Source of the DNA: a virus
IMG/VR virus record: IMGVR_UViG_3300025677_000006
Span: 1-64,000 of that record
Strand: one strand, 5' to 3'
Length of the DNA: 64,000 nucleotides
A model generated the notes under the pieces. That model was not told the DNA's origin, did not search any database, and saw nothing but the letters and a program-made list of their open reading frames with translations. Shown here piece after piece: positions 14,450 through 62,759 of this stretch. Both the position numbers and the translations under genes were made by a program. How positions within the stretch are numbered: position 1 is the first letter of the stretch; each line of letters begins with the position of its first letter.

Positions 14450-14938
14450 TTGCATTATATTATTTTTATTATGTTTAATATTGAATATGATATTACATTA
14501 AATGAAAATGGTAGACCTTGTGTGGATTTATCAAATGATTATGAAAATAATCCAGAAGATAGATTTTTTGCAATAGAATTAACAAGATATTTATTGGAAA
14601 AAATATATGTTGAAAAGAATGATAAGTTTTCTGAAAATGCAATTAAACACATGAATAATACTATTAAACTATTAGGACAAATAAGTGATGAAATTGCAAA
14701 AATTTTATGGAATAATATGAAAGATAAAGGAGATATTGCATTTTCTTTGAATTCAAATTATCACATACAGGTGGAAAATATTGAAGAATTGTATAATTTA
14801 GATATGAAATATATATATTATAACAATAAAATTTTTGAAAGAAAAGAAGGATTAACTGTTTTGGTTCTTAATGAAATGAAAACATATAAATTAAAAAATG
14901 GGATTTTAAACAATAATTGGATTTCTACAAATGATTAA
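14450..14938 (+). CDS. Hypothetical protein
   Basis: 162-aa ORF. Confidence 0.4.
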   Translation: MHYIIFIMFNIEYDITLNENGRPCVDLSNDYENNPEDRFFAIELTRYLLEKIYVEKNDKFSENAIKHMNNTIKLLGQISDEIAKILWNNMKDKGDIAFSLNSNYHIQVENIEELYNLDMKYIYYNNKIFERKEGLTVLVLNEMKTYKLKNGILNNNWISTND

Positions 14939-17900
14939 TAAACCAACAAAAGAACAAGAAAGAATATTTTTATTTACAAAAAAAAGACCTGAAAATATTT
15001 TAATAAAAGCATATGCTGGTACAGGTAAATGTCTTGGATATGATACACCAGTATTGATGTATGATGGAACAATAAAAAGGGTTCAAGATATAAAAATTGG
15101 TGATTTTTTAATGGGTGATGATTCATCGCCTCGTAAAGTATTGAATAAAAATATTGGATATGGTAAACTATATAAAATAAAAAATGAAATAGGATATTCT
15201 TGGGTTTGTAATGATGTTCATGTAATTACACATTACAATGAAATTTCTAAAATTTTGTTAGATACACCACTAAATGAACTCAAATATTCAAAAAAATGGA
15301 ATGGTTATTTAAAAAATATTAAATTAAAAAAATCCATTGTTGAATTTCAAGAAAATAAAACAGAAATAAATCCATATTTATTAGGATTATGGTTAGGATA
15401 TAATTTAAAAAATAATATAAAACAATTTTTATTTGTCGATTTTAGGTTAACAAGAAAAATAATAGAAAAATTGTTGGAGTTAAAAGATAATTCTTTTTTT
15501 GTTTTAAATAAAACAAGTGTTTGTTTAAATAAAAAATATGAAAAGGGTTTTTATTCCGATGATTTTCAAAAGTGTATTATTTTTAATATTGATAAAAACA
15601 AAAAGAATATTCATTTATCAATACCAGACAAATATCTAATAAATTCTATTGAAAATAGAAAAAAAATCTTGGCGGGTATTTTTGATGTTTATTATAATAA
15701 AAAAAACAGGACATCCAAACTAACAATAATTTCAAAAAGGAAAATAGTTAATTTGAAATTTTTATGTGAAAGTTTAGGTTTTATATATAAAGAGAAAAAG
15801 ATATTTTCTTTTCGAAATAACATTTTTTGGAAAATTGACATTAATGGAAATACTAGCATATTACCTTTAGTATATAAAAGAAAACAAAAAACAAATTACA
15901 ATAATTTATTTTCTTTTAAAATAAAAGAAAATATTATATCACAAGGTTTATATTTTGGATTTACTTTAAATGGTAATGGTAGATTTTTATTGGGTGATTT
16001 TACAATCACACACAATACTTCAACCATAGTTGATGCAGTAAAATTATTACCTAAAGATAAATCTATTATGTTTTTAGCGTTCAATAAACACATACAAGAA
16101 GAATTAAAAACAAAATTACCCGAATATGTTAGATGTTATACAACTTATGGTTTAGGTACGTCTGCAATTAAAAGAAAATATGGTGATAAAATACAATTCG
16201 ATGAATTTAAAATTGATAAAATAATACAATCAAAATCAAAAAATTGGAAATTAAACGATGAATTTGATGATAACGATGATATTTCTTTATATTTAAATAA
16301 TATAAAAAAAATGGTTAATTTATGTAGATTAACATTAACAACAAATTCAGAATTTATTCCAAATATTGCTGAAAAATATAATATACCAATTAAAGAAAAT
16401 AAAGATATTAAAAGAATATTAAAAATATTAGAAGAATCAACAATTGATAGAAAAAATTATGATTTTATTGATATGATATATTTACCAGCAATAGATAGTA
16501 GTATTTGGATGTTTCCTCAAGATTATATTTTTATTGATGAAGTTCAAGATTTAAATCGTTGTCAAATAAAAATTGTAGAAAAATTAATAAAAAAAGATAA
16601 AACTACTGGTAAATATATAGGTAGATTAATATCTGTTGGTGATTATTATCAATGTCAACCTAAAGGAACAAAAATATTAATGAATGATAATACAGAAAAG
16701 GATATTGAAAATTTAAATGTTGGTGATTTAATTATTTCTTACGATAGAAAAAGTAATTCCTTTATTAAAAGTAAAATTAACAATATTGGTTGTAGGTATT
16801 ATAATGGAAATTTAATAAAAATAATTTCAAGAGGATGTGAATCTAAATATACACCAGAACATAAATGTTTGGTTAAAATAAAAAAAACAAAACAATTACA
16901 ATTTGTATTGTGTTTGTTTGAATTGATGGATGAAACTCAACACATACGTATATTCACAATAAGAAATGAGATTGATTTTTTTAAAATTTTTAAGAATAAA
17001 AGTGATGTTAATAAAATTTGGATTTTAAAATCGTACTATTCTTTGTATTATGCATATAAAGATGCTAATTATTATTTAGCAAATAAAGATAAAATATTTA
17101 ATGATTTTAATAAAAATTCAAACTACCCGATATGGAATTCTAATTGGAATATGGATTATAATCAAAATTTTTTAGAAATATATGCAATTAATATTATTCC
17201 AGATTTAATGCAAATTTGCAGTTTAAATGCAAATTTGCACAACATTCAAAAAATATATGAATTAAAATATGAAAAATATTCTGGTTTAGTTTATTCTTTA
17301 GAAATTGATAAATACGAAACATATGTTGCTGATAATATATTAACACATAATTGTATATATGGATTTAATGCAGCAGATGAAAAAGCGTTTGAATGGTTTA
17401 GTAAATTCCCAAATACTAAAACACTACCATTATCAACGTCATTCAGATGTTCAAAAAATGTAATAAAAAAAGCACAAGAAATTGTACCTGATATAAAAGC
17501 ACTACCCAATGCACCTGATGGTATTGTAAGGGATGGTAATGTTTTAAAAGAAGCAGAAAGTGGTGATTTTGTTTTATGTAGAACAACAATACCATTAATT
17601 AAATTATTTTTTGAATTTTTAGAACAAGAAAAAAAAGCAATTGTGAAAGGTTCTGATATTGGTGTTCAGTTAATTGAATTAATTGGTGATATTAAATCTA
17701 TTGACAATTTAATTCTTTTTTGGGATAGAGAATTAATTAAATATAGAAAAGAATTAAAAAAGGAAGGTATTTTAAACCCAAATGAACATAGTGGTTATGT
17801 TACATTAGAAGATAAAGTAACAACATTACTTTTTTTAGCAAAATTATCAAATAGTATTGTTGATTTAAAAAATAAAATTGGTTTAATTTTTAGTGATGAA

Positions 17901-18101
17901 ATTCAAGGAATTTGCTTAAGTACAATACATAAAATAAAGGGTCTTGAAGCAAATAGGGTCTTTATAATAAGACCAGATTTATTACCAATGAAAACAACAA
18001 AAAATTGGGAATTTTTACAAGAAAAAAATTTAGAATATGTTGCATATACAAGAGCAAAAAATGAATTAATCTTTGATAGAAATTGGACAGATATCTCTTA
18101 A
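14931..18101 (+). CDS. UvrD-type SF1 DNA helicase interrupted by two inteins
   Basis: Walker A reads AYAGTGK|C...HN|TSTIV. Motif III reads VGDYYQ|C...HN|CIYGFNAADE (compare UvrD GDDDQSIYGWRGA). C-terminal motifs are STIHKIKGLEANRVFII and YVAYTRAKNEL. Removing the two inserts leaves an extein of about 494 aa. Confidence 0.8.
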   Translation: MINKPTKEQERIFLFTKKRPENILIKAYAGTGKCLGYDTPVLMYDGTIKRVQDIKIGDFLMGDDSSPRKVLNKNIGYGKLYKIKNEIGYSWVCNDVHVITHYNEISKILLDTPLNELKYSKKWNGYLKNIKLKKSIVEFQENKTEINPYLLGLWLGYNLKNNIKQFLFVDFRLTRKIIEKLLELKDNSFFVLNKTSVCLNKKYEKGFYSDDFQKCIIFNIDKNKKNIHLSIPDKYLINSIENRKKILAGIFDVYYNKKNRTSKLTIISKRKIVNLKFLCESLGFIYKEKKIFSFRNNIFWKIDINGNTSILPLVYKRKQKTNYNNLFSFKIKENIISQGLYFGFTLNGNGRFLLGDFTITHNTSTIVDAVKLLPKDKSIMFLAFNKHIQEELKTKLPEYVRCYTTYGLGTSAIKRKYGDKIQFDEFKIDKIIQSKSKNWKLNDEFDDNDDISLYLNNIKKMVNLCRLTLTTNSEFIPNIAEKYNIPIKENKDIKRILKILEESTIDRKNYDFIDMIYLPAIDSSIWMFPQDYIFIDEVQDLNRCQIKIVEKLIKKDKTTGKYIGRLISVGDYYQCQPKGTKILMNDNTEKDIENLNVGDLIISYDRKSNSFIKSKINNIGCRYYNGNLIKIISRGCESKYTPEHKCLVKIKKTKQLQFVLCLFELMDETQHIRIFTIRNEIDFFKIFKNKSDVNKIWILKSYYSLYYAYKDANYYLANKDKIFNDFNKNSNYPIWNSNWNMDYNQNFLEIYAINIIPDLMQICSLNANLHNIQKIYELKYEKYSGLVYSLEIDKYETYVADNILTHNCIYGFNAADEKAFEWFSKFPNTKTLPLSTSFRCSKNVIKKAQEIVPDIKALPNAPDGIVRDGNVLKEAESGDFVLCRTTIPLIKLFFEFLEQEKKAIVKGSDIGVQLIELIGDIKSIDNLILFWDRELIKYRKELKKEGILNPNEHSGYVTLEDKVTTLLFLAKLSNSIVDLKNKIGLIFSDEIQGICLSTIHKIKGLEANRVFIIRPDLLPMKTTKNWEFLQEKNLEYVAYTRAKNELIFDRNWTDIS
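15030..16016 (+). mobile_element. Intein 1 (~329 aa) inserted in helicase Walker A. Contains degenerate LAGLIDADG-like motifs.
   Basis: Starts with Cys right after GTGK and ends with HN before Thr(+1). Internal motifs YLLGLWLGYN and KILAGIFDVYY resemble LAGLIDADG, but with the acidic residues replaced. Confidence 0.7.
16653..17351 (+). mobile_element. Intein 2 (~233 aa) inserted in helicase motif III
   Basis: Starts CQPKG immediately after GDYYQ. Ends ILTHN, followed by Cys(+1) of CIYGF. Confidence 0.7.
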
Positions 18102-18113
18102 AATTTTAAATTT

Positions 18114-18386
18114 ATGGAATGGAAAGTAAATTTTGAAAAATATAGTGATAGAAGAATATTAGTTAAATTTAATCCCATAGAAAAAAATTTAACATTTATT
18201 GGTCAATATAAAATAAATAATAATTGGATAGATTTTTATAATGATGTCTTTTTATTAAATATAAATATTAACCAAATTGCTAATATTATGTATAAAATAC
18301 ATGAAAAATTAAATGAGTTGATTGATATTTATGAAAAATTATCGTTAGAATTGGAAAATTTTAAAACAATTGACTTTGTTGAATAA
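18114..18386 (+). CDS. Hypothetical protein
   Basis: 90-aa ORF. Confidence 0.35.
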   Translation: MEWKVNFEKYSDRRILVKFNPIEKNLTFIGQYKINNNWIDFYNDVFLLNININQIANIMYKIHEKLNELIDIYEKLSLELENFKTIDFVE

Positions 18387-18676
18387 TTTGTAACAATTTA
18401 AATTATTTATCGTATATTATAAAAATAATTAAATGATGGAAGAAACAAATAAAACCTTAAAAGAAGTATATAAGAATTCATCTGATGAAGTTAGAGAAAT
18501 TCTTAAAACTAATTGAATCTAATGTAAATGATATTAAAAATAAATTTCTTGAAATATTAAAAATATACTCTAAAAATATTATCTAAATGTTTATTATAAA
18601 GAGATATTAAATTATATTAGTTAAATTAATAATTTTTATAAGGTAAACCTGCTTATATATTCAAACCACTAATATT

Positions 18677-20134
18677 TTAATTTTTCCATAAATAACCATT
18701 TACTCTTTTTTCATTTTTACACCATCTTGATATTGTGGATTGATTAACATTTTCAAAAACACTCGCCTTTTTTGTTGATTCAAATTCAATAATTTCATTA
18801 GTTTTTAAATTAACTTTAAATACCTTTTTGCAAATTATTTCTTTTTGTTTTTCAGACAATCCAATTTGTTTTTTTGTTTTACTAATTTTTTGTTTAGTTT
18901 CTTCTGTATGGTTTTTACCTAACCAATATTTAGAAGAATTTTTACTTAAAATTAATTTATCTTGCTTTGTTTTTTTTCTACCGTATTTTTTTGCATCATT
19001 ACTACCTGCTTTTGAAATTCTTTTATTAATCCATTCTTTAGATTGTTTAATACCTAAATGAGAAATAGACATTTTATCTAAAGTTTCTTTTGTTGGTATT
19101 ATATTTTTACCACCACCTTCAATATTATAACCAAATTCTTTTTGGTTTGATTTATAATCACTAATATATTTAATTTCTTTATTGTTTAGTTCTTGAATTG
19201 TTTTTGCCGTATCAATTATTGTAAATTCAAAATTATCCCAACCATACTTATTGAATGCATTATTAATATAATCATTACCCAAACCATTTTTATATTCTAA
19301 TATTTTTTCATTTATTGAACGAATTGTTTGTCCAATATATAATTTGTTGTTTATTTTGTTTTTTATTTTATAAATAACGCCAATAATTTCATCATTTCTT
19401 TTAGGATATGGTAATATTAAATGATTTATAGATGTTTTATGTTTTTTATTATTTCTTGGTGTGTCTATAAAATAAAAATATCTATGTTTTCTATATTGTG
19501 GTAAAAATATTGCATTGGGATAGTGTTTTAAAATAACATTTTTTTTCATCGTACCCAATTTATTTCTAACCCATCTACTATATCTTAATTTACCATCAAT
19601 TAATACTGAAAATCTTTTTGTTTCTTTATTATTGGAATAATTACCAGACATAACACCAACATATAACCAATTTAATGATTGATAAATTGTTCCGATTTCA
19701 CCTGCTGCTGGGTCAACAGTTGCTGTTATTATTCTATATTTTGTATTATTTTTTAACCATTTACAAACCCTAGAAATAAAAAAAGATGCTGTATTTTTTG
19801 GTGTCCACCATAAACAAACACCCCTGCTTAATAATAAAATTTTATTTGTAAATCCATATTTATCCCAAACACCAGTATTTTCTGTATAATCATTACTAAA
19901 AACTAAAACACCACCTAGTTTTTGACCATTTTCTGTATTAAAATATATACCAAAACAATATTTAACAATATATGGCATTGTTTTTAACCATTCATATTCT
20001 ATTATAATTTTACTTGCAGTGTTTTTATCAATTAATTTAATTTCTGTATTATCTAAAGAAATGTTTTTATAATTAAAATCTAATATTTCTTCTTTTGATT
20101 TTTTTATTCTAATTTTATGTTGGTGTGCTTCCAT
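18677..20134 (-). CDS. GIY-YIG homing endonuclease-like protein fused to an N-terminal ~240-aa domain of unknown function, possibly a GNAT/Mom-like acyltransferase fold
   Basis: The C-terminal half has GIY-YIG (IIGVIYKIKNKINNKLYIGQT). It also has NUMOD3-like repeats (GKNHTEETKQKIS and similar) and a C-terminal HTH-like tail. The N-terminal half (..SRGVCLWW..ASFFISRVCKWL..ATVDPAAGEIGTIYQSLNWLYVG) has no Met before the GIY motif, so this is a single fused ORF. Confidence 0.65.
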   Translation of the reverse strand: MEAHQHKIRIKKSKEEILDFNYKNISLDNTEIKLIDKNTASKIIIEYEWLKTMPYIVKYCFGIYFNTENGQKLGGVLVFSNDYTENTGVWDKYGFTNKILLLSRGVCLWWTPKNTASFFISRVCKWLKNNTKYRIITATVDPAAGEIGTIYQSLNWLYVGVMSGNYSNNKETKRFSVLIDGKLRYSRWVRNKLGTMKKNVILKHYPNAIFLPQYRKHRYFYFIDTPRNNKKHKTSINHLILPYPKRNDEIIGVIYKIKNKINNKLYIGQTIRSINEKILEYKNGLGNDYINNAFNKYGWDNFEFTIIDTAKTIQELNNKEIKYISDYKSNQKEFGYNIEGGGKNIIPTKETLDKMSISHLGIKQSKEWINKRISKAGSNDAKKYGRKKTKQDKLILSKNSSKYWLGKNHTEETKQKISKTKKQIGLSEKQKEIICKKVFKVNLKTNEIIEFESTKKASVFENVNQSTISRWCKNEKRVNGYLWKN

Positions 20135-20170
20135 AGAAAAACATTTTTACAAAAATAGTATTATTTTGGA

Positions 20171-20204
20171 AATAAAAAAAGGGATGTGTTTAACATCCCC
20201 CTTT
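20171..20204 (-). terminator. Rho-independent terminator downstream of major capsid gene
   Basis: Hairpin GGGATGT-GTTTA-ACATCCC with a flanking A/T run (T-run on the minus strand). Confidence 0.5.
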
Positions 20205-20222
20205 AATAAAGTTAAGTACCTA

Positions 20223-21905
20223 CTAGGATAAATCACCAACACCAAATGTTGTTAATCCATCACATAAGATTTTACCATAGTAACGGTTTAGAACCATTTT
20301 CTTAGCATAACGTGTTAAAATACCACGAATTGGTGTAAAATCAAATGGATTATACATTACAGGTGTTAATTGCATAGGTATATATGGTGCATAAATATAG
20401 CCGGTTTCCAATATGCTAGTTCCTTTATGTCCAATAAGAACAGTATTAGGTGCTGAATATGGGTCACGGTAAACAACATAACGTCCACCTATTGTACCAA
20501 TTTTTTCAATACCCATATTATACTTATCTTGTTCAGGTGAAGCATTTGAAACGTGGAAATATTCTAAGTCATCAAAAACAGCAGAAACTTCAGGAGATAC
20601 AACTATCCATGATGCACCACCACGTAATGTTGACTTATTAATTTGTGCTGAAATTTGGTTAATTTTAGTAATTAACGTTTGATTCCAGTCTTTTTGTACA
20701 CCATAATAAGTATTAGTTCCTTTTCTTAATCCGTTATAATCCCAACGAGCAGTCCATGCAGCACCACGTCTTAAGTCACGTAATATTTCACGGTCAATTT
20801 CAGCAGCCATTTGTTCTGATAACAATGCAGTTAATTCTGCTTCAGCATCAATATTATGGAATGCAGAAACGTCTTGTGCTAATTCAGGTGTCCACATTGC
20901 TCTCATTTTACGAGTTTCAACACTTACAGTAACATAATCAAGAACGAATGTTACTTCTGCCATTCTTGAATCTTGTTCAAGGTCGCTATATGTTCTATAT
21001 GTTGCAGTATAAGTAGTTCCAGTTGGAATGGTTAATGCATGATAACCATCTTTACCAGGATATTGAACATCAAGTAAAACAACAATTTTACCATTTTTAT
21101 CCACAATACCCTGTCCATATTTTTGAACTTTTACGTTAAATGGTATTGGATTTCCACTTGCAATATTTTCACTTGTATAACCACTTGGTGCTGTAAAAGT
21201 TTTATTTGCTGTTACTTTTAATCCAGCAAGGAATGATTCGGTATCCATTGGTGCGCCAGCAGGACCTACCAATTTACCTGCATTATCAGTAGTAAATCCT
21301 GTGATTTCAAGAGTAACGAATTTATCTCCTGCTGTATAACCTTTAGCAGTTAAACCAGTAATTGATTTACTATCAATACTACCTTTTGATAAATCGAATA
21401 ATGAAGTACCTTCATCATTATATTCAGTTGCATAGAATGCATCGTATAATGAACGAGTTTCAAAATTAGTTGAACTTGTTGATGTTTTTTCAGCAGCATT
21501 TCCATATGCACCATCAGGTGATGTATGAATATTACCAAGTGTTGTTGTATGTGTACTATCTTGTACACGTGTACTAGCCTTTGGATTGATAAAATATAAT
21601 CTACCTAAAGGTAAGTTAAGTGCTTGTACTGAAACAATATCGTTTGCTAATAATTTTGCAAACACCCTACGAATAACAGGGAATGCAACTGTTTCAAATT
21701 GACCGCTTGATGTAGAATCAGAAGATTCTTTAAGCATATGAGATAATTGGTTTTCGAATAATTGAGCGCAATTTTCTTTAATATTGCCATCTAATCCTTC
21801 AAGTAATCCAATTTTTTCCCAACGGTTTGTCGTAATTTCTCTTTGTTCACGAAGTTGTTTAATACCAATGTTACCAACTTCGCCACTTTCCATTAAAAAT
21901 CCCAT
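20223..21905 (-). CDS. Major capsid protein, T4 gp23 family
   Basis: VIRRVFAKLLANDIVSVQALNLPLGRLYF matches T4 gp23 (MVRRAIPNLIAFDICGVQPMNSPTGQVFAL). The C-terminus YIYAPYIPMQLTPVMYNPFDFTPIRGILTRYAK matches gp23 (IYYAPYVALTPLRGSDPKNFQPVMGFKTRYG). The N-terminus has a NCAQLFENQ block as in gp23. Confidence 0.9.
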   Translation of the reverse strand: MGFLMESGEVGNIGIKQLREQREITTNRWEKIGLLEGLDGNIKENCAQLFENQLSHMLKESSDSTSSGQFETVAFPVIRRVFAKLLANDIVSVQALNLPLGRLYFINPKASTRVQDSTHTTTLGNIHTSPDGAYGNAAEKTSTSSTNFETRSLYDAFYATEYNDEGTSLFDLSKGSIDSKSITGLTAKGYTAGDKFVTLEITGFTTDNAGKLVGPAGAPMDTESFLAGLKVTANKTFTAPSGYTSENIASGNPIPFNVKVQKYGQGIVDKNGKIVVLLDVQYPGKDGYHALTIPTGTTYTATYRTYSDLEQDSRMAEVTFVLDYVTVSVETRKMRAMWTPELAQDVSAFHNIDAEAELTALLSEQMAAEIDREILRDLRRGAAWTARWDYNGLRKGTNTYYGVQKDWNQTLITKINQISAQINKSTLRGGASWIVVSPEVSAVFDDLEYFHVSNASPEQDKYNMGIEKIGTIGGRYVVYRDPYSAPNTVLIGHKGTSILETGYIYAPYIPMQLTPVMYNPFDFTPIRGILTRYAKKMVLNRYYGKILCDGLTTFGVGDLS

Positions 21906-21931
21906 TGTTTTAAATTTTTATTTATTTTTTG

Positions 21932-23503
21932 TTATTTTTTGCTTCCGTAATTAATCAACTTTTTAATTTTTTCGATATGTTGATTATTTTCATATGCAGT
22001 TTTTTCAACAACTTCGTCAAGTTTTTGCTTTGAAGACGATTGTATTGAAGCAGACACTTTCGTTTCAATGCTTTCAGTTAAAGTATTTGGTTTTTTTTGC
22101 ATTTCTACAAGTAATTCGTTATACTTTTTCTGTGACTCAGCAATATTATCAATTTTTTTAAAGTTGTTGATAATATTAATTTTATCATTTTGTGTAAGGG
22201 CAAGATTTTCGTTTACCAATAAGTTGTTGACGTGTGCTAAATTGGTATTAAATGTTGCCATTTCTTTCAATTGATTTCGATATTTTTCAAGTGCGGTTTT
22301 ATATTGTTCTAATAATTTGGATACGGTTTGTTTGTATTTTTTATTTTCATTTAATTTTTTTGTGAGTTTTTTATTCTCATTAATTAAACCATTAATCCTT
22401 CTTTCAGATTCCCTCATAGAAAAACGCATACGTTGAACATTTCCTTGTGTTTGATATTCTTTATCAGGAATATTTCCAGTTGTAGCCCTTTTATTGGGAT
22501 ATGACATTCCTAATGTTTCATCGATTTCATTATCAGCAAGTGCTGCATCGATATCATCATCAGTAATTTCAATTTCTTGAAGTTGATTATCTAATTCATC
22601 ATCAATTTCAATATCTTGAAGTTGATTATCTAATTCATCATCAATTTCAATATCTTGAAGTTCATCGTCTTCTTGAATATTAGAATCAAAATTTTGAATA
22701 ATTTCATCTAATTGATTACGCAATTCATATAGTTTATCATTCAAATTATTAGATGTTGGTTTGATTTCATTAGAATCTGAATTTTCTAATTCTTCATCAG
22801 AATTTAAGTCATCTAATTCTTCATCAGAATTTAAGTCATCTAATTCATCTTCAGAATTTAATGCATTAATTTCTTTTTCAATATCATTTAAACTAAATGT
22901 TTCGTCATCATCAATTTGAAATTCATCACTTTCATTTGCACATTCTAATGCATTACCCACTCGATTAACATCCAATTCTGTTATGTCAAATTCTTCCTTG
23001 ATGTTTTCTTTTTTTGGTGTTTTTTCTTTGAATGTATCACCATCTTTGCTTTTTTTAGTTGCAATATTTGGTGTATTAGATTCAACATCGCCCATAATTT
23101 CTTTATTTTTTTCTTCAGAAACGTTATTTTCGTTAACTTTTTTCTCATATGGGTTACTATCACCAACAGTATCAGTAATTTTTACATCTTCATCAACCAC
23201 TTTTTGTTTTTCTAATTCATCTGTGGTTTTTTTAACTTTTTTAGTTTCTTTTTCATTCTTTTTCATAACAGATTCTTCTTTTTGATTAATTTCATCATCT
23301 TCATCAGATTCTTTATTATCATCCATTTTTTTATAGGATTTTTTTGTTTTATTTTTATTTAATTCTTCATTTATAATTTCATTAAATCGTTTTGAATATT
23401 CTTCTTCTAATTTTTTATTCGCAACAATTTTAGCAGCATTCATGATTTCATCATAATCAGATAATGCTTCTTTAAGAATTGATGTTTTTTTTATATCACT
23501 CAT
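21932..23503 (-). CDS. Acidic prohead scaffold/core protein (gp22-like by position and composition)
   Basis: Highly acidic, with repeats DELDDLNSDEEL and IEIDDELDNQLQD. It sits between the protease-like gene and the capsid gene, as gp22 does in T4. Confidence 0.5.
   Translation of the reverse strand: MSDIKKTSILKEALSDYDEIMNAAKIVANKKLEEEYSKRFNEIINEELNKNKTKKSYKKMDDNKESDEDDEINQKEESVMKKNEKETKKVKKTTDELEKQKVVDEDVKITDTVGDSNPYEKKVNENNVSEEKNKEIMGDVESNTPNIATKKSKDGDTFKEKTPKKENIKEEFDITELDVNRVGNALECANESDEFQIDDDETFSLNDIEKEINALNSEDELDDLNSDEELDDLNSDEELENSDSNEIKPTSNNLNDKLYELRNQLDEIIQNFDSNIQEDDELQDIEIDDELDNQLQDIEIDDELDNQLQEIEITDDDIDAALADNEIDETLGMSYPNKRATTGNIPDKEYQTQGNVQRMRFSMRESERRINGLINENKKLTKKLNENKKYKQTVSKLLEQYKTALEKYRNQLKEMATFNTNLAHVNNLLVNENLALTQNDKINIINNFKKIDNIAESQKKYNELLVEMQKKPNTLTESIETKVSASIQSSSKQKLDEVVEKTAYENNQHIEKIKKLINYGSKK
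22568..22670. repeat. Tandem 39-nt repeat (~2.7 copies) encoding IEIDDELDNQLQD
   Basis: The unit aatttcaatatcttgaagttgattatctaattcatcatc recurs directly. Confidence 0.7.
22784..22862. repeat. Tandem 30-nt repeat (~2.6 copies) encoding LDDLNSDEE
   Basis: The unit tctaattcttcatcagaatttaagtca recurs directly. Confidence 0.7.
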
Positions 23504-23581
23504 AACAATAAAATATCAACCTAATAGTATAATTTTAATATAAATACAAACTAATTGATAAAAAGACGATTTTTACTTTAT

Positions 23582-24277
23582 TTAAAGTAAAAAATCATCT
23601 AATGTTTTTATTATTTTATTTTCGAATAGTTGTGGTTTTTTTTCAATCACATAAAATTCATTAAAATTTTTATCATCATGTCTTTTTGGAAATAAATATG
23701 CACCAGGGGTACTTGGTGTTGCCACCAAATCAAATCCAATTAATTCAAAATCATTTTGTACAATATTTTCACCATTTATTTCTTTTAAACTACCAACACC
23801 TCTACTAGATATACCCAATCTTATTTTATTTTGTAAATATAAAAGAATTTTATCACCAATAACAGAAACAATACCATATTTTAAAAAACCAGGACTTACT
23901 ATTAATTTTATTGTTCCATATAATATATTTTCGTTTTCACCAGAACCCCACCACATTTTTGTTAATAAATGGGATATATTTTGTAAAGAAATTATGCTAC
24001 TCTCAGGATGGTCTGCTTCTGAAACAGAACTATTGTTTTTTATTAATTCCTGATAAATTTCTACTTGTGGTACTAATACTTCTTTTGGATAAATCCTATC
24101 GTTTTTATTTTTAACTCCCCATTTTTGTAAAATACAATCAATTAAAATTGGTTCATTTGGGTTTATTTTAAAATCTTCATTTAGTATATTATTGTTTAAT
24201 TCGTGTGTTATAAATCCTGCATCATTTTCAATTAATATACCAAAACCAATATCACCTTTTCGTAATATTCTGCTCAT
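23582..24277 (-). CDS. Prohead core protease-like protein (gp21-like by position)
   Basis: 231 aa, located immediately upstream of the scaffold and capsid genes in gp21-gp22-gp23 order. Contains a GISSRGVGS serine motif. The assignment is by synteny more than by sequence. Confidence 0.45.
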   Translation of the reverse strand: MSRILRKGDIGFGILIENDAGFITHELNNNILNEDFKINPNEPILIDCILQKWGVKNKNDRIYPKEVLVPQVEIYQELIKNNSSVSEADHPESSIISLQNISHLLTKMWWGSGENENILYGTIKLIVSPGFLKYGIVSVIGDKILLYLQNKIRLGISSRGVGSLKEINGENIVQNDFELIGFDLVATPSTPGAYLFPKRHDDKNFNEFYVIEKKPQLFENKIIKTLDDFLL

Positions 24278-62543: not shown

Positions 62544-62616
62544 GTACAATTAACTCAATGGATAGAGTGTTCATTCACAATATGAAATATTGTTGGTTCG
62601 ATTCCAACATTGTAAA
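62544..62616 (+). tRNA. tRNA (73 nt), anticodon unclear (loop TCACAAT, formally ACA)
   Basis: Canonical cloverleaf. Acceptor GTACAAT/ATTGTAA with a G1:A72 mismatch. D-arm ACTC-AATGGATA-GAGT. Anticodon stem TTCAT/ATGAA. T-arm GTTGG-TTCGATT-CCAAC. Confidence 0.5.
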
Positions 62617-62648: not shown

Positions 62649-62734
62649 TTGCGGTGTGGAGAAATGGTATCTCGCCTGCCTCATAAGCACGGAGTCCCTA
62701 TTGGGTTTAAATGGGTTCGATTCCCATCACCGCT
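62649..62734 (+). tRNA. Type II tRNA (86 nt, long variable arm), anticodon loop CTCATAA (CAT)
   Basis: Acceptor TGCGGTG/CACCGCT with a T1:T72 mismatch. D-arm GAGA-AATGGTA-TCTC. A 19-nt variable arm. T-arm ATGGG-TTCGATT-CCCAT. Confidence 0.5.
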
Positions 62735-62759
62735 ACAAAAAAACGTTCTTTATATAAAT

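Follow-up and report, generated by a model that had tools for sequence, protein, structure and literature searches.

A Mom-family domain fused to a GIY-YIG homing-type endonuclease in an optional cassette behind the major capsid gene of uncultured T4-like jumbo phages

The window analysed here is a stretch of 64,000 nucleotides (positions 1 to 64,000 of IMG/VR virus record IMGVR_UViG_3300025677_000006) that is very AT-rich, with a G+C content of 24.8%. Its minus strand carries a 485-amino-acid (aa) open reading frame (ORF) that stays in one frame between its ATG at 20134 and the stop codon at 18677-18679 and is predicted to encode one polypeptide joining a complete Mom-family GNAT domain to a complete GIY-YIG endonuclease. 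Upstream lie gp23, which encodes the T4-type major capsid protein (MCP), then a 523-aa ORF and then a gp21-type prohead protease gene. The spacer between gp23 and the 485-aa ORF is 88 nt long and contains a strong terminator hairpin. The original prediction, made from the letters of the window, placed the gene directly downstream of the major capsid gene, which agrees with the Pfam Gp23 match to the adjoining ORF, and all peptide strings that it cited occur in the 485-aa translation. Coordinates of the features are collected in Table 1.

ATG, GTG or TTG codons occur in the frame of the ORF at residues 1, 53, 162, 193, 196, 285, 355 and 426 only. The GIY motif occupies residues 252-257 and no in-frame start lies between residues 196 and 285, so that the nuclease module lacks a start codon of its own, as had been proposed. 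The N-terminal half is recognized as Mom by two profile collections. Residues 31-245 cover positions 3-202 of the 202 in the Pfam Mom profile (PF25680; E=4e-26, 92.4 bits with a cut-off of 27.1), and PHROG 1384, "Mom-like DNA modification protein", matches the same half (E=1e-25). The GNAT fold of this domain is nearer to Mu Mom than to ordinary acetyltransferases. These matches bear out what was at first a tentative GNAT or Mom-like assignment, and the region is a Mom domain rather than an extended DNA-binding domain of a known homing endonuclease.

The C-terminal half matches Pfam GIY-YIG (PF01541) at residues 252-331, above the cut-off, and NCBIfam TIGR01453, "group I intron endonuclease", at residues 253-480 (E=6e-23, 82 bits, cut-off 56.05). 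Several PHROG homing endonuclease families also match it, the best being phrog_314 (E=5e-34), and a sequence search of solved structures returned marginal I-TevI matches only (E=0.08). AlphaFold2 places helices and strands at residues 428-484 with a predicted local distance difference test score (pLDDT) of about 90. A NUMOD3 match at residues 403-418 stays below threshold (16.9-18.3 bits against 20.4), and PF07460 appears among the precomputed matches of several homologues. This half is thus predicted to be a complete I-TevI/Seg-like GIY-YIG endonuclease with a catalytic domain, a NUMOD3-like linker and a helix-turn-helix (HTH) domain. The GIY-YIG and C-terminal HTH parts of the architecture first proposed are supported by PF01541, TIGR01453 and the structure model; its NUMOD3 repeats are found at sub-threshold level only.

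The fusion recurs in a large protein family. A homologue search of 5.8 billion protein clusters gave 567 matches at E <=1e-5, and domains were inspected in the best 120. Pfam Mom and Pfam GIY-YIG are both present on 112 of these, at 45-78% identity and mostly with lengths of 483-505 aa; the clusters derive from JGI, ENA, NCBI and Logan assemblies, with contigs of up to 340 kb. The same architecture in more than 100 independent protein clusters is far beyond chance. An alignment of the 485-aa query with 90 homologues gives the family junction as ...L-P-Y-P-K-R-N-x(2-5)-G-x-I-Y..., and none of the 46 homologues listed from that alignment has a methionine there. Mu Mom ends in ...Q-P-Y-P-K, exactly where the fusion junction begins, which leaves about six residues between the natural C-terminus of Mom and the start of the nuclease. 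Pairwise identity in one half correlates with that in the other (Spearman 0.61), which indicates that the two halves diverged together. From this pattern of conservation, we regard the Mom::GIY-YIG fusion as real, old and under selection.

An artefact could in principle imitate such a protein if mom and a seg-like gene had been merged by a frameshift or a lost stop codon, or if an intron endonuclease were read in frame with an exon. Free-standing GIY-YIG enzymes normally begin at the GIY motif, and one related fusion, in which a Hef-type GNAT domain takes the place of Mom (L066; L numbers denote related loci), does carry a frameshift at its junction. However, the junction is identical, and free of a start codon, across the 90 aligned homologues and across assemblies from all four sources, no group I intron or other Rfam family matches positions 17500-22500 at E up to 1, and the match to the Mom profile runs up to the final position, which leaves no downstream exon missing. 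The absence of an Rfam match together with the complete Mom domain excludes an intron-encoded endonuclease, and the shared junction, the absent Rfam match and the 112 of 120 clusters jointly exclude a frameshift, a recent loss of a stop codon and intron read-through. We consider an artefact extremely improbable, and the sequencing frameshift that the original prediction allowed for, splitting two genes, does not apply.

Isolated phages and public annotations give little sign of this family. A tblastn search of 50,697 GenBank phage genomes found no fusion: Mom and the endonuclease match separate genes, and no record covers at least 80% of the query. A megablast search with positions 17000-24000 against the 50,697 phage records found no near-identical cultured phage, and the nearest isolate MCP is 31.6% identical to the gp23 of the window. 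BFVD likewise holds no full-length fused match, the two domains matching separate proteins. Public databases name members of the family solely as "GIY-YIG nuclease family protein" or "group I intron endonuclease". The window protein itself has been deposited as truncations of 324 aa (P0045) and 402 aa (P0001), both 100% identical to it; one truncated deposit begins at M162, is labelled "GIY-YIG nuclease family protein [archaeon]" and hides the Mom half. The archaeal label is probably wrong for a contig from a T4-like phage. Nuclease-only names and truncated calls make the modifying half invisible to database users.

Biochemical knowledge of Mom-type hypermodification comes almost only from phage Mu (PMC7261163). 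Functionally important residues of Mu Mom are H48, Y49, R101, S114, D139 and Y149, of which the Mom-specific arginine R101 is essential, yet dispensable for cofactor binding (PMC7261163); these residue numbers are 10 lower than the RefSeq numbering. We aligned Mu Mom with the 485-aa query and 77 diverse representatives (79 sequences). R101, S114, D139 and Y149 correspond to R104, S117, D141 and Y151, each kept in at least 75 of the 79 sequences; within the fusion family R104, S117 and Y151 are invariant and D141 nearly so. Mu Mom, a methylcarbamoylase (PDB 8bv8, PF25680), differs at the H48/Y49 pair, which is replaced by E48/W49 within a "YEWLG.MP" motif (E in 78 and W in 70 of the 79). This places the N-terminal domain, as judged from the alignment, in a large subclade of Mom that does not include Mu. 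With its Mom-specific arginine retained, this domain is probably still active on DNA. The change of H48/Y49 to E/W, and the matches of some homologues to Pfam Acetyltransf_1 and Acetyltransf_7, could instead mean that the domain does not modify DNA, serving as a DNA-binding or base-flipping reader, or acetylating a protein such as the nuclease itself or a host factor, within what would then be an unusual homing endonuclease. Retention of R104 and of the counterparts of S114, D139 and Y149 speaks against this reading, which we judge unlikely.

Mom relatives elsewhere are mostly free-standing: a profile-free Mom-domain scan of 1.84 billion representatives returned 1184 relatives, the majority of this kind. 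Canonical Mom is also fused to DNA N6/N4 methylases, endonuclease VII, a LAGLIDADG domain and a resolvase plus HTH, and to a Vsr/restriction endonuclease (REase)-like domain at a weak, sub-threshold match (these fusions are seen in P0155, P0165, P0177, P0158, P0274, P0261, P0234 and P0277 of the representative library). Since its partners span methylases, endonuclease VII, LAGLIDADG, Vsr/REase-like and resolvase modules, Mom is a promiscuous partner of DNA-acting modules. The gin invertase gene of Mu lies just before com and mom, and Mom-resolvase fusions may echo this gin-com-mom neighbourhood. Mu Mom is free-standing, whereas the Mom of the window is fused to a nuclease, and no com-like regulator is evident for the window gene.

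Catalytic residues of the nuclease half are conserved too. Y255, Y266, R272, E320 and N337 align with I-TevI motifs and do not vary among 66 sequences with identities as low as 45%, and the catalytic residues are also retained in the free-standing and Hef-type-fused versions of the nuclease described below. A loss of cutting, with the nuclease module domesticated into a DNA-targeting tether for Mom, would have a precedent in homing endonuclease DNA-binding domains that are sometimes co-opted, and one locus (L074) keeps Mom with a truncated nuclease. The invariance of the five residues, which extends to the free and Hef-type-fused versions, makes this very unlikely.

The setting of the gene is shared with related phages. 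Two homologues on contigs of 340 kb and 279 kb (L001 and L003) have the same neighbourhood as the window, with a gp21 protease gene, an ORF of about 500 aa, gp23 and the Mom::GIY-YIG gene on one strand, followed by one to three small ORFs on the opposite strand. Beyond these, a UvrD-type helicase gene follows in L001 and the window; none was called in the L003 stretch. A wider survey of the slot behind gp23 used a gp23 probe to collect 80 IMG/VR loci with MCPs 71-100% identical, mostly on contigs of 240-365 kb, and combined scans with hidden Markov models built from the family with measurements of how far the next conserved gene lies from gp23; the contigs include near-duplicates, and slot counts are counts of contigs. 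The occupant of the slot varies widely among these loci (Table 1). In eight of them (L016, L023, L040, L041, L043, L046, L048 and L067), only 62-95 bp separate the gp23 stop from the stop of the conserved 90-aa ORF. Where a cassette is present, it is about 1.5-1.9 kb long and always begins right after the gp23 terminator. The cassette is optional in this clade of uncultured AT-rich T4-like jumbo phages. Both patterns that the original prediction had singled out among relatives have been found, namely an empty site between the capsid gene and the next gene (the eight loci above) and an N-terminal-domain gene without the endonuclease (the stand-alone Mom of L060). Its idea of a homing-endonuclease landing site holds, with the qualification that the slot is a polymorphic hotspot common to several related nuclease cassettes.

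Variation within the slot takes several forms. Three loci (L066, L074 and L060) carry what appear to be decay forms typical of homing endonuclease genes. Tandem Mom::GIY-YIG paralogues occur in L003 and L006; the longer copy (about 566-586 aa) differs in its C-terminal tail, a sign that DNA specificities may have diversified. L007-L010 have two small ORFs in place of the nuclease, a 160-aa one whose N-terminus resembles a signal peptide and a 147-aa one that contains a hydrophobic segment, so the slot is a general variable region.

Table 1. Features of the window and contents of the slot behind gp23 at related loci; slot counts are contigs, near-duplicates included
Feature	Position or loci	Strand	Remarks
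Whole ORF, Mom::GIY-YIG::NUMOD3-like::HTH fusion protein	18677..20134	-	485 aa
Mom-family GNAT domain	19400..20134 (residues 1-245)	-	Ends in YPK(R) motif, as does Mu Mom
Short junction R-N-D-E-I-I	19382..19399 (residues 246-251)	-	Without start codon; length conserved family-wide
GIY-YIG catalytic domain	19100..19381 (residues 252-345)	-	Y255, Y266, R272, E320, N337 invariant in family
Low-confidence extended linker, NUMOD3-like repeats	18860..19099 (residues 346-425)	-	Sub-threshold NUMOD3; pLDDT 53-69 over most
Compact C-terminal HTH-type DNA-binding domain (predicted)	18680..18859 (residues 426-485)	-	TIGR01453 match to residue 480; AlphaFold2
Short cassette leader	20135..20175	-	Window copy of relatives' shared upstream element has diverged
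Intrinsic terminator hairpin ending gp23	20176..20204	-	In all related loci; cassette starts right after
T4-type major capsid protein gp23, upstream flank of slot	20223..21905	-	Pfam Gp23, E=2.9e-70
Conserved 90-aa ORF, downstream flank of slot	18114..18386	+	Opposite strand to cassette
UvrD-type helicase, two genes from fusion	14931-18101	+	1056 aa, two inteins
523-aa ORF between prohead protease and gp23	21932-23503	-	Extremely acidic
Adjacent tRNA genes	62544-62616 and 62650-62736	+	ARAGORN
Slot empty (<=500 bp)	14 loci		8 with 62-95 bp holding shared terminator hairpin
Slot with about 1 kb of unrelated small ORFs	14 loci		e.g. L007
Slot with Mom::GIY-YIG	~17 loci		Some with alternative longer DNA-binding tail; L006 has two copies
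Slot with GIY-YIG + DNA-binding module (~500 aa), different (Hef-type GNAT) N-terminal domain	~18 loci
Slot with free nuclease module, own DNA-binding domain	L029, L030, L078		Start MKEFGIIYK
Slot with classical Hef-like genes	~8 loci		Including L024, L032, L037, L053
Hef-type GNAT::GIY loci	L011, L012, L017, L032, L035, L047, L049, L054, L058, L062, L064, L069, L071-L073, L079, L084
Apparent decay form	L066 8063-9533		Frameshift exactly between Hef-type GNAT and nuclease halves
Apparent decay form	L074 9712-10761		Mom + truncated nuclease without DNA-binding tail; Lys for catalytic Arg
Apparent decay or alternative form	L060 9739-10683	-	Stand-alone Mom ending at YPKR junction motif
Tandem Mom::GIY-YIG paralogues	L003 8297-9997 and 10001-11485
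Tandem Mom::GIY-YIG paralogues	L006 7725-9224 and 9206-10966
Two small ORFs in slot	L007-L010 7777-8632		160 aa and 147 aa
Helicase orthologues without inteins	L001 11791-13266; L007 8930-10414		491-494 aa
Carriers of leader TTTGT-n5-TGCATAAACACATAT, Mom-fused	L001, L006, L020, L026, L028, L052, L070
Carriers of the same leader, Hef-type-fused	L017, L047, L049
Carrier of the same leader, free	L029

The alternative N-terminal domain found on the same nuclease module has no Pfam match. It matches the C-terminal parts of PHROG 3339 and PHROG 559 and, by tblastn, the C-terminus of the phage U5 Hef protein and "Hef-like homing endonucleases" of AR9, Campylobacter, Acinetobacter, Dickeya, Pseudomonas and Lak phages. 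One of these Hef-like proteins is annotated "putative nuclease/acetyltransferase"; most such annotations do not name a GNAT domain. Among homologues of the alternative domain with 37-52% identity, two carry Pfam Mom (P0125, at 27.7 bits just over the cut-off, and P0138) and two carry above-threshold Acetyltransf_1/7 matches (P0122 and P0127), often with a weak Vsr/REase-like domain in front. On these profile matches, the alternative domain is assigned as the Hef domain, with a GNAT fold related to Mom.

Exchange of the N-terminal domain is evident from the nuclease module and from the DNA in front of it. The nuclease module of the window is 70% identical to that of a Mom-fused relative (L052) and 67% identical to that of a Hef-type-fused one (L011), and Mom-fused, Hef-type-fused and free architectures interleave in a crude neighbour-joining tree of the module. 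A leader element, TTTGT-n5-TGCATAAACACATAT, lies about 20-45 nt 5' of the ATG and is common to the three versions; it could be a promoter or operator. The interleaving tree, the 70% and 67% identities and the shared leader imply that the N-terminal domain has been exchanged or lost on one nuclease chassis. Searches for other signals around the window gene were negative: a scan for sigma-70 promoters gave no more matches than shuffled sequence, a search for RNA structure that could mask the start codon found only the gp23 terminator to fold convincingly (z-score -1.2), and flanking repeats of the kind left by target duplication were limited to chance matches in AT-rich sequence. A Bacteroidota-type promoter was considered as a host clue and rejected, since the TAnnTTTG motif 23 nt 5' of the ATG is not enriched in the window (4 of 55 window ORFs against a background of 4.7%).

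Among known systems, the window gene resembles I-TevI and the T4 Seg proteins (TIGR01453) in its C-terminal HTH and in a linker with NUMOD3-like repeats at sub-threshold level and, like the seg genes, it is free-standing without an intron; it differs in lacking a zinc finger in the linker and in having its catalytic domain after a 245-aa enzyme domain, whereas the I-TevI/Seg catalytic domain is N-terminal with its own start. In T4, the free-standing GIY-YIG gene segD lies between genes 23 and 24 (PMC2988022). The window gene also lies directly behind the major capsid gene and is patchy among relatives, but has the same orientation as gp23 whereas segD is antisense. According to the same T4 review, nrdB is cleaved by Hef, a unique endonuclease of phage U5 (PMC2988022). 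Hef and Hef-like proteins (PHROG 3339 and 559), like Mom-REase fusions, also combine a nuclease with a Mom-related GNAT domain in one chain and are patchily distributed in large phages. The order in Hef-like proteins is nuclease first and the reverse of the window protein, where GIY-YIG is C-terminal to Mom; their nuclease has weak Vsr/REase-like matches only (PF18741) and is not GIY-YIG, and their GNAT domain is divergent and mostly escapes Pfam Mom. The same slot in relatives holds Hef-like genes, and at about 18 loci the same GIY-YIG chassis bears a Hef-type GNAT instead of Mom.

For jumbo phages, Iyer et al. predicted in 2021 that Mom is fused to nucleases of the REase fold (PMC7824862), so that Mom::GIY-YIG is not a categorically new combination. 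The original prediction called such a fusion unusual; with 112 of the best 120 clusters sharing it and Mom-REase fusions already in print (PMC7824862), it is not a one-off. A GIY-YIG partner is not mentioned by Iyer et al. (PMC7824862), and full-text literature searches turned up no account of Mom fused to GIY-YIG or to a homing endonuclease. We found no earlier report of the GIY-YIG/I-TevI-type partner of Mom, of the size and conservation of the family, or of a hotspot in which canonical Mom and the Hef-type GNAT are swapped on a single nuclease chassis.

Our preferred reading, held with moderate confidence, is that the protein would be a mobile nuclease carrying its own adenine-modifying domain, in effect a one-chain, restriction-modification-like unit. 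Its recurrence behind the capsid gene, as a cassette that some phages have and others lack, suggests a selfish element able to "modify and cut" by itself. The nuclease module would bind and cut DNA that lacks the cassette or its mark, in co-infecting or superinfecting relatives and possibly in the host, and cleavage would promote spread or retention of the cassette, as with the free-standing seg genes of T4. The tethered Mom domain would use an acyl-CoA to modify the N6 position of adenine in carrier DNA, a mark that may shield the carrier against restriction by the host and, probably, against the nuclease of the cassette too. The protein as a whole would then be a modify-and-cut unit, mobile and contained in one chain. 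A parallel exists in the single-chain Type IIG/IIC restriction-modification enzymes, with one polypeptide or system that both marks and cuts DNA, and GIY-YIG is a proven restriction nuclease fold (e.g., Eco29kI). Compared with the Type IIG/IIC enzymes, the window fusion has a predicted Mom-type acylation instead of S-adenosylmethionine-dependent methylation, a homing-type DNA-binding part, and a phage-borne location in a homing hotspot.

Several points weigh against a mobile modify-and-cut unit of this kind. The E48/W49 pair stands in place of Mu H48/Y49, which are associated with acetyl-CoA contact and a proposed iron ligand, and the chemistry may depart from Mu methylcarbamoylation because Y49, part of the proposed iron site, is replaced. 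Slot counts do not represent independent lineages because IMG/VR contains near-duplicate contigs, and the star-like nuclease tree, drawn from p-distances, leaves the number of domain swaps uncertain. Genome-wide protection is a poor fit with a nuclease whose recognition site is long, since few sites would then be within reach of the tethered Mom. The main weakness is that modification cannot distinguish genomes that co-replicate in one cell, so that it fits attack on superinfecting phages or the host better than classical homing.

This blindness to co-replicating genomes leaves a purely restriction-like function as a serious, if clearly less probable, rival. The protein would then be a weapon with no role in homing: GIY-YIG of relaxed specificity, as in T4 EndoII, would degrade unmodified host or superinfecting DNA, Mom would mark the phage's own DNA, and patchiness would stem from gain and loss in an arms race rather than from nuclease-driven mobility. 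Such a function corresponds to the published reading of the jumbo-phage Mom-REase fusions, whose authors infer that momylation shields the DNA of the phage and that the nuclease is directed at DNA of the host or of superinfecting phages (PMC7824862). It is consistent with the conserved active sites of both domains, with the tandem paralogues that have different DNA-binding tails (L003 and L006), as expected if specificities diversify, and with the fusion of canonical Mom to DNA methylases and several other nuclease folds. It does not sit well with the full I-TevI/Seg architecture (NUMOD3-like linker and HTH), which is typical of site-specific homing enzymes, with a single hotspot beside a conserved essential gene that is shared with Hef-like and free GIY genes, or with the frameshifted and truncated forms, which follow the decay pattern of homing endonuclease genes.

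A more far-reaching possibility is a homing or exclusion element with epigenetic instead of sequence-based immunity, in which Mom, delivered by the DNA-binding module of the nuclease, would acylate adenine in or near the recognition site on the carrier genome, so that only unmarked competitor DNA, of a superinfecting relative or of the host, is cut. The Hef-type GNAT of the Hef-like endonucleases, long known but of obscure mechanism, would play the same role, and Mom chemistry would then underlie a whole class of mobile restriction-modification units made of a single chain. We put this forward tentatively, as a rather improbable extension.

Other features of the window deserve brief mention. 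The coding DNA of the fusion contains a 50-nt direct repeat of 70% identity, between 19219-19268 in GIY-YIG (...KYGWDNFEF...) and 19846-19895 in Mom (...VWDKYGF...), which is probably a chance likeness in AT-rich coding DNA. The inteins of the UvrD-type helicase are marked by a Hom_end-associated Hint domain at residues 34-87 and Intein_splicing at 583-807, while its orthologues in L001 and L007 lack inteins; their position near the fusion cassette means that several selfish elements lie close together in this phage. The 523-aa ORF has tandem repeats (SDEELDDLN and DIEIDDELDNQLQ) and no Pfam match and, to judge by its position, probably encodes a prohead core or scaffold protein. Of the two tRNA genes, that for tRNA-Cys has the anticodon ACA (usually GCA), and the tRNA-Met gene is 87 nt long.

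Taken together, the family represents a predicted Mom enzyme built into the same chain as a homing-type nuclease, in uncultured giant phages of a widespread clade. A natural experiment is provided by the one hotspot at which a single nuclease chassis is found on its own, joined to canonical Mom or joined to a Hef-type GNAT, and this domain swapping ties DNA modification to the C-terminal domain of Hef-like endonucleases, so far unexplained. The hotspot further offers a testable hypothesis, that a selfish nuclease may gain self-immunity by modification instead of by mutation of its target site. A retargetable DNA-binding module joined to a predicted adenine-acylating domain could be of interest to tool developers.

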